Source: Promethearchaeota archaeon
GTDB taxonomy: Archaea > Asgardarchaeota > Lokiarchaeia > Sigyniarchaeales > SOKP01
Length of the DNA stretch: 64,000 bases
NCBI GenBank assembly: GCA_048938855.1
Contig: JBHLLT010000002.1
Coordinates: 1-64,000, forward strand
Direction: 5' to 3'
The position numbers were made by a program, and so were the translations under genes. The notes below the pieces were generated by a model. It saw nothing but the letters and a program-made list of their open reading frames with translations. It did no database searches and was not told where the DNA came from. Of the stretch, positions 41,348-57,943 are shown in pieces (position 1 is the stretch's first letter; the number at the start of each line of letters is the position of its first letter).

Positions 41348-41440
41348 GGCCCTTGACGGTTGGAGTGGTCTCTGACGCTGGGCTTCAAACCCAGTTATCC
41401 TGCGGAGGGATAGGGGTTCGATTCCCCTCGAGGGCCGCCA
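41348..41440 (+). tRNA. selC: tRNA-Sec (anticodon UCA), 9/4 fold, CCA encoded
   Basis: 9-bp acceptor GGCCCTTGA/TCGAGGGCC, 7-bp D stem, CTGGG-CTTCAAA-CCCAG, long variable arm, 4-bp T stem GGGG-TTCGATT-CCCC, G73-CCA. Confidence 0.97.
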
Positions 41441-53181: not shown

Positions 53182-54696
53182 CTAATCCATTCCTAACATT
53201 GCCCGCAAACCGGGATACTGTGAGGCAGCTAACTCCTTTGATATTTGTTCAGCATATTGGTGAATTATCCCTATAGCTATAAGAAGGCCCGTACCAGAGC
53301 TCAACGCACCTAGAGTATCTGCGCCAAAACTGAGACTAGCGATAATAAAGCCGTTCAAAATGACGAGAGTAGGTATATATCTTTTCAGGATTCTTTCGAT
53401 TACCTTAGAGGAGCTTCTAAATCCGGGAATCTGCATTTTTGAATCTATAATTTGTTGAGCGATATCACGTGGCGCCAGGCCTGAAACTTCGACCCAGACA
53501 CGGCCGAGCATTACACATAAAACTATAAATATCGCTAAATAAATAAATCCTCTAGCTGGATTTAAAATAAAGTCATCTATTCCCCTTGGTGGAGTAAGTA
53601 AATATACTAGTCCTCCCGTTGGAACAAGTTGGGTGCCTTGAGTTGATCCACCTTGTACTTCGTTAAATGTGCCTATCAAGTTAACCCAGAAATCGGGGAT
53701 AAGCCCCCCATTCTCAGCACGTATTCCAGAATGTGGACCAGCAAGTAATTGTGCAAAAAATAATATATTTGCATACAATGCATTGACTAAAATAACAGGA
53801 ATGTTTGAAACATAAAGTAATTTCATTGGATATTTACTTTTAAAGCCTCGACTACCACGATATGCCAACGGTATCTCTACACGCGTTGATTCGAACCAAA
53901 TTACAATAACAAAGATCACAATGGTAGTAATTACACCTAATAGAGACGGATATCTATTACCCGCACCAAAAACTCGGATAAATAGTGTGTTTAATTGCCC
54001 TGCATTGTCAGGATTACCATCAAACAATGCTTGAAAGAATGCTATTACAACCCCTCTAGCTAACCCATCAGCAGGATTATCTGTTGCCGTAGGTAGGGGT
54101 GTAGGAATAAGACTAAAACAGTTCCAAAAGATTTGTCCAGCAATACCTGCAGCTATGAACAAAGAAACACCACTTCCAAGCCCCCAACCTTTTTGGAGGA
54201 CTTCATCAAGTAAGATGATAACAATTCCTGCAAAAAGTAATTGAAAAAACACAAAAAATGCTCTATCTATAGCTAATGGTCCAAAAGCTCCACCCATAAT
54301 ATATGCTGTAGCATTGAAGATTGTTAAAAATATGGAAAGTACTTTTTGTGCTCCACTAAACATTGCTCTATCATATGGATCAGACATATTTACTTTGATT
54401 ATTCGAGAACCAAGAAGTAATTGCATAATTAGTCCAGCTGTGACTATAGGACCAATACCTAATTCTGTTAACATTCCCCTCTGACTAGCAAGGATAACCC
54501 TTAGCCAATAAAAATAATCTGTTGATTGTTGAATATTTACACCATAGAGGGGAACATTGCTCATAAGTAAGTAAATTATCAAAACAATAGCAGTCCAGAT
54601 AAATTTCTCTTTAAATGTAACTTCACGTTGTGGCTGTTTTATTTCTGGCATTATTTTTACAAACGGAGTGAAGAATTTAAGGAACTTACCAGGCAT
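53182..54696 (-). CDS. secY: Protein translocase SecY/Sec61-alpha
   Basis: EK..WT, ELGIGPIVTAGLIMQLL, GWGLGSGVSLFIA, YP.KLLYVSNIPVIL, SGTGLL. Confidence 0.98.
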   Translation of the reverse strand: MPGKFLKFFTPFVKIMPEIKQPQREVTFKEKFIWTAIVLIIYLLMSNVPLYGVNIQQSTDYFYWLRVILASQRGMLTELGIGPIVTAGLIMQLLLGSRIIKVNMSDPYDRAMFSGAQKVLSIFLTIFNATAYIMGGAFGPLAIDRAFFVFFQLLFAGIVIILLDEVLQKGWGLGSGVSLFIAAGIAGQIFWNCFSLIPTPLPTATDNPADGLARGVVIAFFQALFDGNPDNAGQLNTLFIRVFGAGNRYPSLLGVITTIVIFVIVIWFESTRVEIPLAYRGSRGFKSKYPMKLLYVSNIPVILVNALYANILFFAQLLAGPHSGIRAENGGLIPDFWVNLIGTFNEVQGGSTQGTQLVPTGGLVYLLTPPRGIDDFILNPARGFIYLAIFIVLCVMLGRVWVEVSGLAPRDIAQQIIDSKMQIPGFRSSSKVIERILKRYIPTLVILNGFIIASLSFGADTLGALSSGTGLLIAIGIIHQYAEQISKELAASQYPGLRAMLGMD

Positions 54697-54937
54697 TTTT
54701 AATCAGGAATATTAATTTTTTCGATTGTATTATTTTGAGTTCACTTGAGCAAATAACAAATTCTAAAAAATGAAATGTAATAAAAAAAAAAATAGATTTT
54801 TAAAAAAAGTTTACTATTTGAAAACGGAATTTTTATGATAACCAAATAGTCAATTGTTATATTTAAAAAAAAATAAATAAAAAATATTAACTTCTTTGAG
54901 ATTGAAAATATAAATATCTTCAATAAATGGGAGTTTC

Positions 54938-55228
54938 TTAGAAGAGACTTCCAATACCGGTAGGTTCTTCTTCTTCTGGTTCTTCTTTCTTCTTCTTTTC
55001 TTCCTTTTTCTCTTCTTTTTGAGCTCCTTTTGGAGCAGCAGCAACAGGTGCAACACTTGCAGATTTTATAATATCTTCAATCTTTGTTCCTTTTAAACCC
55101 GCAATTAGTTTAGATATTTCAGTTTTATCAATTTTAGCACCCGCGGCAGTTAATACTTTTTCTACGTTTGATTCGGTAATTTTACCTCCAACTTTATGAA
55201 GTAATAAAGCTGCATAAATGCTTTCCAT
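54938..55228 (-). CDS. rpl12: Ribosomal stalk protein aP1/L12
   Basis: ME.IYAALLLH..G, Ala-rich hinge, acidic tail G.GSLF. Confidence 0.96.
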   Translation of the reverse strand: MESIYAALLLHKVGGKITESNVEKVLTAAGAKIDKTEISKLIAGLKGTKIEDIIKSASVAPVAAAPKGAQKEEKKEEKKKKEEPEEEEPTGIGSLF

Positions 55229-55302: not shown

Positions 55303-56199
55303 TTATCCAAAGAGTCCTCCAATTCCAACGTCTTCTTCTTCAGATTCCTCTTCTTTTGGTTTTTCTTCATTGTCTTTAATCTCTTCTTCCTCAGTAAGAA
55401 CTTGAATCCCCTCCCCGAAGATAATAGCATTTAGGCTATTTGCTTCAGAAACAGCTTTTCGAATATAATCTTCGGACATATCTTCTATAAAGTAGGGCAT
55501 CTCAAATAGAATGGCTAATGCTTCTCTATAAGCCTTTGCAAAATCTTGTCTAAAATGTTCTATATCCATATACAAGATATCTTCGGGTACAATTTCACCA
55601 TCACTCCAAGCAAAGTGAATTTTAATCAAGGATTCTATCGGAGTAATTCCTAATTTTTTCAAAACTGCTGCCTGTTTTACGTCTACAATATCACCCGCTT
55701 TATGTGTTCTTGTATCCTCTCGAACGTGAATAGTATCATTCATAATTCTGGTTGGTAATCGTAATGTCATATTCAACTCACTAATAACTTGCCCTGTTGG
55801 CAATCCAGTATCCCCCGCAGGAACCCAAATATCCACGGGGGTGACTTCATTAGGTTTTGCTGGAACCATCCACTCGTTTTCAAGGAATATATTCTTTAAT
55901 TCAAAGATATCAAGATTAGTAAAAACTAAACTCGATTGACCTGGGATATGATTAACAAATTCATCTAAATTTTTCTTTTTAGATTCGTTTTTGAATTGTT
56001 CTATTGCACGGAGTTGAAGAGATTTTTTAGACATTCTAAATACTGCTTTTCCTCTTAGAATTTTCCGCATTGTTTGTATTTGCATATCGTTAATATGAGC
56101 AACTTCGATCACAATAACATTTTTATAATTTTTAAATAAATCAACCAATTGATTAATTTCATTTATTTTCCATTGTGGAATATGCTTATTTTTAATCAT
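55303..56199 (-). CDS. rpl10: Ribosomal protein uL10/P0
   Basis: IPQWK, Q.MRK.LRG, VPAGDTG, L.KLGI.P, acidic tail GIGGLFG. Confidence 0.96.
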   Translation of the reverse strand: MIKNKHIPQWKINEINQLVDLFKNYKNVIVIEVAHINDMQIQTMRKILRGKAVFRMSKKSLQLRAIEQFKNESKKKNLDEFVNHIPGQSSLVFTNLDIFELKNIFLENEWMVPAKPNEVTPVDIWVPAGDTGLPTGQVISELNMTLRLPTRIMNDTIHVREDTRTHKAGDIVDVKQAAVLKKLGITPIESLIKIHFAWSDGEIVPEDILYMDIEHFRQDFAKAYREALAILFEMPYFIEDMSEDYIRKAVSEANSLNAIIFGEGIQVLTEEEEIKDNEEKPKEEESEEEDVGIGGLFG

Positions 56200-56203
56200 A
56201 AGT

Positions 56204-56932
56204 TTACACCCCTATTGTTTTTAAGAATTCTTCTGTTACTTTAACAGGTGTCCCCATTGTAGACTTTAAATACATTGATTTAAAATTATTGAATCTATGA
56301 GGCATTTGATCTGCTATAAAATTCACGACAGTTTTCATATTTTCAAATAAATGTTCAGAGTTCATAGATTTTTTTCCTATCTTGGCAAATATAATAGGTT
56401 GCTTTTTCATCTGAATTCTAATAATTTTTTTATATCGTTCATAAGCTACTCTTAATTCATCTGGACTGGAAATAATTCCATATCCTGTAGGGAAAGGTTT
56501 GGGTATTTTACCGACGGGACCAAGGAATCTTGCTAGGTATCGAGCAACATCTCTCATCATTTTATCTTCTACGATAAAAAATTCATACTTTTTGGCAAAC
56601 TTTTTCTTAATCTTTTTTTCTTCGTTATTTAAATTAACTAAACCATCTGAATCAATGGTATCAATACCTAATTTTTTTGCTTCAAGCAATATCTCATCAG
56701 AAGCAATCACACAAATATTAGGTTTATCATTTACAGTGATATCATTAGATAAGATAATTTCCTTATCAATTCGGTTTTTAGGATCATTTAAATTAACATC
56801 TTTAATATTAATAATTAGGTCAATAGATTCATCAAATTTTCTAACTTTATCTTTAAAACCATCTTTTTTTATAACTGAAAAGTCTATAGCAGCATTTAAT
56901 GACTTTCTTAATAATTTATCATCTACTTTCAA
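56204..56932 (-). CDS. rpl1: Ribosomal protein uL1
   Basis: RKFDESIDL.IN, LGP.GK.PKP, Y.KSTMG.PV. Confidence 0.96.
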   Translation of the reverse strand: MKVDDKLLRKSLNAAIDFSVIKKDGFKDKVRKFDESIDLIINIKDVNLNDPKNRIDKEIILSNDITVNDKPNICVIASDEILLEAKKLGIDTIDSDGLVNLNNEEKKIKKKFAKKYEFFIVEDKMMRDVARYLARFLGPVGKIPKPFPTGYGIISSPDELRVAYERYKKIIRIQMKKQPIIFAKIGKKSMNSEHLFENMKTVVNFIADQMPHRFNNFKSMYLKSTMGTPVKVTEEFLKTIGV

Positions 56933-56938
56933 TTTTAA

Positions 56939-57506
56939 TCATTCACCTCTTATTTTATCATCATACTCTCCATTGTCAATTCGTTTTTGAATAATCCTAG
57001 GATCCTCTCCTTCTACTGTTATACCTACTGACAATGCAGTTCCCAGCACTGTTTTTACTGCCGCTTTATAGGTCTTATCCAAAAATTTCTCTCTTTTACC
57101 TTCGACTACATTTTGAATTTGCTCAAGTGTCAAATTGCCAATTTTTTTCTCAGCTGTAGCAGATGTACCTTTTTCAGCACCAACTTCTTTAAGCAACAAT
57201 GATGCTGTAGAGGGTGTTTCAATGAAAATTTCAAACTGTTTTGTTTCTGGATCGCATTCTATTCTTACGGGTACAGTTAATCCTTTAAAAACCATCGTTT
57301 GCTTGTTTATCTCGTCCACTACGTCTTTAATATTTATACCTGTGGGGCCTACGGAGGGGCCTTTACCATTGCTTGACAAAAGCGATATGCTTTATGTAAT
57401 AGGCGGCCCTCCTGATGCATTTGGGGTCTAATCGAAACGATTATTAAAGATATACACTCCCACCAGTCACAAGAGCCTTAACAATAATTTTACCTTTATC
57501 ACTCAC
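56939..57506 (-). CDS. rpl11: Ribosomal protein uL11, 164 aa after splicing of three exons: 57506-57457, 57419-57399, 57362-56939
   Basis: Joined exons (50+21+424=495 nt) read [44 protein letters not shown]...; GTG start with GGTGA 6 nt upstream; heads the L11-L1-L10-L12 cluster. Confidence 0.9.
57363..57398 (-). other. rpl11 intron 2 (36 nt, relaxed BHB-like)
   Basis: GGAGGGCC-GCCU-AU^U...UGGU-AA^A-GGCCCCUCC: strong exon-exon helix, 3 of 4 central pairs, internal hairpin AAAGC/GCUUU; in-frame UAA. Confidence 0.82.
57420..57456 (-). other. rpl11 intron 1 (37 nt, BHB-like)
   Basis: UGGG-AG^U...CCCA-AA^U: perfect 4-bp central helix with two 3-nt bulges; internal hairpin UAAUCG-UUU-CGAUUA; contains an in-frame stop and shifts the frame. 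Confidence 0.85.
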
Positions 57507-57757
57507 ATATACTCACCGTTTATAATTGAAAATCTTTGTTAAAAAAATATCTAAAAAAATATGAACGCTAAATTAATACAAATTTCTTTCCAATATCTTT
57601 AAATATATTGAAACCGCTTTAATTTGCGTCCTAAGTTTCTTAGAATAATTTTTTTAAACTTAGTGAGTTTTAGAATTAAGCAATATTAAAAAATTTTATC
57701 TTTCAAAAGGAGACTTTCAAAAATAAAGCAAAAAAAATCATTAAGGAGTTTGAAAAG

Positions 57758-57943
57758 TTAACCTCTACAACAAAGTCTTCTTCCAAATTCGAGATTACAC
57801 TTATAATATTCTTCAGACAAAATTTCTTTTACAGTATCATAATCTAAATTTACTATTTTAGCTATATCTTCAATAGCGTTTCCTGGAGTGGATATTAATT
57901 GACAAATTTTTTTTTTAATTTCTTCAGTAATTTCTACGGTCAT
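57758..57943 (-). CDS. Small HTH-like protein with Cys-rich C-terminus
   Basis: IEDIAKIVNLDYDTVKEIL helix-turn-helix pattern; C-terminal CNLEFGRRLCCRG. Confidence 0.6.
   Translation of the reverse strand: MTVEITEEIKKKICQLISTPGNAIEDIAKIVNLDYDTVKEILSEEYYKCNLEFGRRLCCRG

Follow-up and report, generated by a model that had tools for sequence, protein, structure and literature searches.

Two tRNA-type introns flanking a 21-nt exon in the rpl11 gene of an Asgard archaeon and their probable stepwise splicing

Introduction

The rpl11 gene for ribosomal protein uL11 described here, from a Loki-type Asgard archaeon, is broken on the minus strand by two tiny inserts (37 nt and 36 nt) that flank an exon of only 21 nt. 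This raises the questions of whether the inserts are spliced from the mRNA, in which order, and whether their removal controls the gene. A first-pass annotation of the same DNA had proposed that the micro-exon is almost entirely occupied by splice motifs and that splicing could gate uL11 synthesis at the head of a ribosomal stalk and secY gene run. The window, i.e. the whole stretch of 64,000 nucleotides analysed, is C49:1-64000 of a 3.95-Mb genome bin (G000), with a GC content of 30%. The data are best explained, at a probability of roughly 0.6, by constitutive stepwise splicing of two tRNA-type mRNA introns that are distributed separately.

Structure of the gene and assembly support

When both inserts are taken out, a full and intact uL11 frame is obtained, and this split rpl11 is the sole match to uL11 in the genome (one gene copy). 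It is organised as follows:

57457..57506, minus strand: exon 1, 50 nt, GTG start at 57506, codons 1-16 plus 2 nt, placed by protein match to intron-free relatives
57420..57456, minus strand: intron 1, 37 nt, frameshifting, HBh' motif, in-frame TAA at 57446-57444, CCCA at 57425-57422 pairing with exon 1
57399..57419, minus strand: micro-exon 2, 21 nt, holding the last base of Ser17, ASGGPP and two bases of Ile24
57363..57398, minus strand: intron 2, 36 nt, relaxed hBH motif with an internal hairpin, in-frame TAA at 57394-57392
56939..57362, minus strand: exon 3, in which 57361-57357 form the 3' strand of the exon helix of intron 2

Exon 2 has exactly the limits, length and strand given in the first-pass annotation, which had also placed both premature stops correctly. 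Unspliced rpl11 RNA stops after 20 codons at TAA 57446-57444, and RNA keeping insert 2 alone stops after 25 codons at TAA 57394-57392. A spliced alignment blind to the motif put both junctions in BHB register with zero shift.

An assembly artefact or chimera is scarcely credible as the origin of the inserts, although the sequence comes from a metagenome bin with 7% contamination. A single contig covers the entire stretch at even depth, homologous inserts occur in dozens of genomes, and both inserts are found on DNA contigs from three studies with 0-6 differences, where the best-matching run might be the source of the assembly itself and the other two studies are further ones. Since the inserts recur on contigs of three studies, they are not an assembly error.

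Occurrence of rpl11 inserts in the family

The rpl11 gene was compared in 113 species-level genomes of the family, whose kin are not independent, and in additional metagenome loci. Inserts were located at four sites within about 50 nt, namely after CDS nt 50 (intron 1), 71 (intron 2), 83 and 100. No insert was found in 59 of the 113 genomes, whereas 54 carried at least one. Single inserts were seen at site 100 in 18 genomes, at site 71 in 10, at site 50 in eight and at site 83 in four; the combinations were 50+100 (five genomes), 50+71 (three), 50+71+100 (three), 50+83 (two) and 71+100 (one). One insert initially assigned to site 95 is counted here under site 100. In three loci (L168, L169 and L308, from G005, G096 and G150), three rpl11 introns enclose two micro-exons of 21 and 29 nt. 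A fifth site may exist in the metagenome locus L226, where an insert of 31 nt lies near CDS nt 95-97.

The 21-nt micro-exon occurs in 6/113 genomes belonging to two genera. Intron 50 was present without 71 in 15 genomes, 71 without 50 in 11 and both in six, a co-occurrence that is not significant (Fisher p 0.085, with kin not independent). The exon helix of intron 2 is nearly as complete in genes that lack the intron (4.9 of 6 pairs) as in those that have it (5.1), since the codons for Gly and Pro complement one another. In this way, the GGPPIGP motif may offer ready-made splice contexts.

Splice motifs of the two introns

Intron 1 has an HBh' motif with a central helix UGGG/CCCA of 4/4 pairs, the exon side of which is:

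57457..57462, minus strand: strand contributed by exon 1 to central helix 1 (UGGG), and the two bulge bases (AG), with 4/4 pairs in 25/25 distinct carriers

The first pair of this helix is U-A in 14, A-U in eight and U-G in three of the 25 distinct carriers, so that U-A and A-U replace each other in a compensatory manner. A relaxed hBH motif is formed by intron 2 in G000, in its 3-pair variant, with a 5-bp exon helix and a central helix of 3/4 pairs, one G-U; the fourth pair is present in 15/27 site-71 carriers and is often a mismatch at this site. Of the 4-bp central helix that should end 2 nt ahead of each cut, intron 1 has all pairs and intron 2 has 3/4. Neither intron of G000 shows the strict hBHBh' form (two 3-nt bulges, each helix-closed), which was found at sites 83 and 100 and in three site-71 carriers. 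Relaxed forms prevail, with HBh' in 24/25 site-50 carriers and hBH or the full motif in 13/27 site-71 carriers. In random 28-38-nt coding segments in fixed register, HBh' arose at a rate of 0.35% and the relaxed 3-pair class at 1.8%. The earlier description of both motifs as relaxed and BHB-type was borne out.

On comparative grounds, the rpl11 inserts are selected splice signals and not debris, and they are very likely spliced in vivo. Conservation of the intron sequence is 0.77-0.83 vs 0.49 at four-fold sites, and this excess could point to a function beyond splicing. Most hairpin loops of the rpl11 introns contain the word TCG/TTCG, at whichever of the four sites the intron lies.

The micro-exon and its shared strand

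Two short segments describe how the micro-exon is used by both motifs:

57467..57477, minus strand: exon-1 strand of the outer helix of intron 1 (CDS nt 30-40), pairing with 57415-57405 (exon-2 nt 5-15)
57405..57409, minus strand: shared strand GGGCC, pairing either with exon 1 (57477-57473) or with exon 3 (57361-57357), according to geometry, pair tables and constrained folding

Within the micro-exon, nt 1 lies in the bulge of intron 1, nt 5-15 in its outer helix and nt 11-15 in the exon helix of intron 2, which is completed by the start of exon 3, while nt 16-19 belong to central helix 2 and nt 20-21 to the bulge. In total, 18/21 nucleotides have a role and five (57409-57405) have two competing ones. 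The micro-exon hence contributes parts to the motifs of both introns, as the first-pass annotation had stated, and its wording that the exon is almost entirely occupied by them was, if anything, an understatement.

No exon helix stands directly beside the 3' bulge of intron 1 (h = 0 in every carrier listed). The outer helix forms 9-10/11 pairs in 28/28 intron 1 carriers (mean 9.64), compared with a mean of 5.23 in 92 non-carriers. It was the top helix in a hypothesis-free scan and was seen in carriers of five genera, and the difference between carriers and non-carriers is mostly one of synonymous codon choice. Comparison of these sequences demonstrates selection for the exon 1/exon 2 outer helix.

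By geometry, the full folds of intron 1 and intron 2 are mutually exclusive, as they have five bases in common, and since the two exclude each other, stepwise splicing is implied. Constrained folding predicted helix 1 and fold B jointly at a probability of ≤0.005 in G000. In nascent G000 RNA, the folding model gave helix 1 a probability of about 0.9, a value that speaks for removal of the 5' intron first. The full-length prediction varied with the folding window, fold A vs B being 0.56 vs 0.03 in a short and 0.05 vs 0.29 in a longer one, values to be read in a model that assigns low probabilities even to the textbook motifs of site 100. As the prediction flips with window length, equilibrium folding cannot fix the order of the introns. 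Geometrically, fold B can coexist with the central helix of intron 1 and 3 bp left over from its outer helix, so that both introns might be cut at the same time.

Two further ideas about the double-intron genes were rejected. Direct skipping from exon 1 to exon 3 would keep the frame, yet provides no central helix (UGGG against UGGU). A Ser codon in exon 3 appeared as a candidate adaptation to the double intron (3/7 double carriers vs 4/148 others), but these three carry a common exchanged block. The identical exon 2 of 6/7 double carriers is, on the same grounds, no independent sign of constraint.

Splicing machinery

Two EndA paralogues are encoded in the genome. The protein on C93 (alpha) aligned best to the A. 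pernix catalytic subunit (E 4.5e-34) and contains the crenarchaea-specific loop (L1/CSL) with its Lys, as well as the Tyr/His/Lys triad. In the protein on C34 (beta), the His is absent. RtcB is present as well (E 3e-170). From these features, the EndA of the genome is of the (αβ)2 type with a broad-specificity loop. Asgard EndA has been reported as (αβ)2 with an L1 loop and was tied to relaxed motifs (PMC5829648). The broad-specificity endonuclease that the first-pass annotation considered necessary for such motifs is thus encoded in the genome, together with the ligase.

A tRNA-SeC gene lies in the window at 41348-41440 on the plus strand. Many of the ARAGORN tRNA calls for G000 have introns, which lie in non-canonical places in several cases, and several calls seem to have been parsed wrongly.

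Spread of the introns

The history of the introns was followed on a FastTree tree of rpl11 codons 41 onward plus rpl1, in which several inner nodes are weakly supported. Fitch parsimony required 17 changes for 21 carriers (19.6 with shuffled labels) and 14 for 17 carriers (16.1 with shuffled labels). G007, the sister and closest sampled relative of G000, has a site-100 intron only and neither of the G000 introns. Between G000 and G007, identity is 75% in CDS nt 30-105 and 89% distally, whereas G000 and G094 are 98.7% identical in CDS nt 30-105 and 82% distally. The 3' edge of the G000 tract is spanned without differences by contigs in runs X2 and X6 of two studies. G018 and G108 (L025 vs L172) are 97% identical distally and 80% in CDS nt 30-105, and intron 71 occurs only in G108; the short 5' block in which these near-identical species differ (rpl11 nt 1-85) looks like a clean exchange tract. 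Lateral exchange of intron-bearing blocks would fit these patterns best, the alternative being strong constraint plus repeated loss.

Similar inserts in other genes

A search of conserved genes for like inserts, of the kind suggested with the first-pass annotation, yielded at least seven in six genes, unrelated enzymes among them. This census, which was independent of the motif, detected seven inserts in 6/1752 orthologues, including uppS-like and AMP-phosphorylase-like genes, against a single 81%-complete relative as reference. As it misses shared introns and short first exons, seven is a lower bound.

Outside rpl11, four 30-nt stop-containing hairpin inserts were located in G000 at C16:18884-18913 (plus), C49:457983-457954 (minus), C6:135358-135329 (minus) and C74:52205-52176 (minus). 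They split the conserved motifs uppS-like DG^NRR, TGGG^K, WD^WGSG and AMP-phosphorylase-like HS^TGG. A candidate insert on contig C1 of G000 was not confirmed. The relative G023 has HBh' inserts of 31 and 30 nt at C1:292034-292004 (minus) and 1382056-1382085 (plus) (L067, L102), which are absent from G000; one lies in a purA-like WGDEGKG motif and one in an EF-2-like TDSD^DEEQERG motif.

Downstream genes and regulation

The genes that follow rpl11 are:

56204..56932, minus strand: rpl1, TTG start 6 nt past the rpl11 stop; the tail of rpl11 contains GAGGTGA, which resembles a ribosome-binding site
55303..56199, minus strand: rpl10
54938..55228, minus strand: rpl12
54697..54937, minus strand: rpl12-secY spacer, 241 nt, with long T-runs
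53182..54696, minus strand: secY, a conserved neighbour

The five genes are co-oriented, as the first-pass annotation had noted, but nothing except the gene order speaks for the proposed coupling of secY, which starts 241 nt beyond rpl12. It follows rpl12 in 28/30 loci, with spacers of roughly 230-440 nt in relatives, and probably forms its own transcription unit. A sigma-70 promoter and terminator scan stayed at the level of shuffled sequence, sigma-70 models being ill-suited to archaea. Two other explanations of the 5' region were tried at 56800-57760: an L1-binding or other ribosomal protein leader over the introns was rejected for want of any Rfam match up to E 5, and no group I/II intron was matched up to E 5 either, the inserts of 36-37 nt not being ribozyme-sized.

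Alternative explanations

In the preferred explanation, two tRNA-type mRNA introns, distributed separately, have come to lie 21 nt apart in a Gly/Pro-rich 5' hotspot of rpl11. Very probably, an (αβ)2 EndA would cut both and RtcB would join the exons. Intron 1, having no exon helix beside its 3' bulge, would depend on the longer-range 10-bp exon 1/exon 2 helix, and intron 2, whose central helix is imperfect and whose 5' site lacks an intron helix, on the exon 2/exon 3 helix. The full folds would quite probably alternate through the five common bases, so that the introns leave singly with strand exchange, with a slight preference for losing intron 1 before intron 2, while the RNA is still being transcribed. 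The exon in play would always be helix-held, which may limit exon skipping. The micro-exon would be a by-product of intron accumulation, and the double-intron block might have been passed between species by recombination. Splicing would be constitutive processing and not an evolved switch, while still making uL11 depend on EndA and RtcB.

Both inserts might also be genuine EndA introns that are cut independently or together, the outer helix merely stabilising the RNA and imposing no order. The HBh' motif of intron 1 requires exon-2 nt 1 alone, helix 1 and fold B have no common bases, and in G150 both folds are predicted together at 0.3-0.4 in a longer folding window. However, the joint state is predicted at ≤0.005 in the six other double carriers, and the outer helix including the five common bases is kept in 28/28 carriers and 7/7 double carriers; as it is kept in all 28, it is probably needed, and free cutting is rather unlikely. 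That the inserts are not spliced at all, with ribosomal bypassing, an N-terminally truncated uL11 from the internal TTG at 57379, or a decaying gene instead, is very improbable. The in-frame TTG does yield a 146-aa ORF, and uL11 is dispensable in several bacteria. Against this, the take-off and landing codons mismatch (AGT/AAT, ATT/AAA), unlike those of bypassing elements (T4 gene 60, byps), the protein sequence of exon 1 is retained in all carriers, and compensatory pairing in BHB register is seen at four sites.

The gate suggested in the first-pass annotation, in which EndA/RtcB capacity would set uL11 output and polarity would also affect rpl1, rpl10, rpl12 and secY, stood in one part: any required splicing makes uL11 dependent on EndA/RtcB. 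As an evolved control device it is unlikely, and still more so for secY. Retained introns do lead to early stops, the inserts are concentrated within the first 100 nt, with at least one in 54/113 genomes, and the introns are more conserved than neutral sites. For the cbf5 intron, a role as regulator has been suggested (PMC2738675), and HVO_1309 seems to be a case in which excision of the intron is important for expression (PMC7714728). Yet gene order is unchanged in the 59 insert-free genomes, the sister genome carries another intron, introns occur solo more often than together, the sites are interchangeable and apparently laterally exchanged, and like inserts hit unrelated enzymes. Moreover, rpl1 has a ribosome-binding-like site of its own, secY is distant, and a census of Asgard tRNA genes takes the permissive EndA as background (bioRxiv 10.64898/2026.10.13.758758). 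A related idea, in which rpl11 splicing would become slow and ordered through the shared-strand switch and would compete with translating ribosomes, is likewise doubtful.

Relation to known systems

In HAC1/XBP1, a tRNA-type ligase joins mRNA exons and the unspliced RNA does not give the full protein, as in rpl11. That system employs Ire1, a nuclease devoted to stress sensing, and its intron position is conserved, whereas a housekeeping EndA is implied for rpl11 and the intron is absent from half of the family. One conserved intron position across the clade, as in HAC1/XBP1, was not found in the 113 genomes (59 without insert, four alternative sites).

The rpl11 introns would work like the cbf5 pre-mRNA intron of Desulfurococcales/Sulfolobales, which is also a short BHB-type coding intron, often relaxed, with a hetero-oligomeric EndA and patchy loss (PMC2738675). 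A regulator role has been proposed there and is unproven, and the same applies to rpl11. However, cbf5 has one intron at one site, whereas rpl11 has two introns flanking a 21-nt exon, four sites in the family, a ribosomal gene and an Asgard host; splicing of cbf5 was demonstrated in RNA and that of rpl11 is deduced from DNA. As proposed for rpl11, several BHB motifs per RNA and ordered removal are known from multi-intron pre-tRNAs (PMC3728597 and archaeal cases it cites). There, the order is set by motif stability, position or a motif formed after prior removal, while in rpl11 two helices compete for one exon strand, which sits in an mRNA and whose bases also encode protein. The 5'-UTR BHB intron of HVO_1309 in Haloferax volcanii is likewise an EndA substrate within an mRNA, and its excision appears to be relevant to expression (PMC7714728) but, unlike those of rpl11, it lies in the UTR, is single and breaks no reading frame. 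Interrupted Asgard tRNA genes share repeated gains of small BHB inserts and a permissive (αβ)2 EndA with rpl11 (bioRxiv 10.64898/2026.10.13.758758); that work covers tRNA only, and the terms 'mRNA' and 'cbf5' are absent from its main text.

In 2020, the cbf5 intron was still called the sole BHB intron of an mRNA apart from the one in the HVO_1309 UTR (PMC7714728). No report of rpl11 introns or Asgard mRNA introns was found in a literature search of incomplete coverage. With the relaxed-BHB features that can be read from its DNA, the rpl11 case would represent a novel variation on the cbf5-type mRNA intron.

Conclusions

In the literature searched, cbf5 is the sole archaeal coding sequence with documented EndA splicing. 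A core ribosomal gene with 21-50-nt exons and as many as three introns, in which splice helices constrain the synonymous codons, would show spliceosome-free multi-exon mRNA processing in Asgard archaea. The rpl11 precursor (about 140 nt) is a small and fully specified substrate for studying how RNA structure controls order and exon inclusion. How BHB introns spread is an open question to which the exchange tracts seen here are relevant. In practical terms, uL11 is in standard use as a phylogenetic marker, and its gene is called in truncated form in about half of the family.
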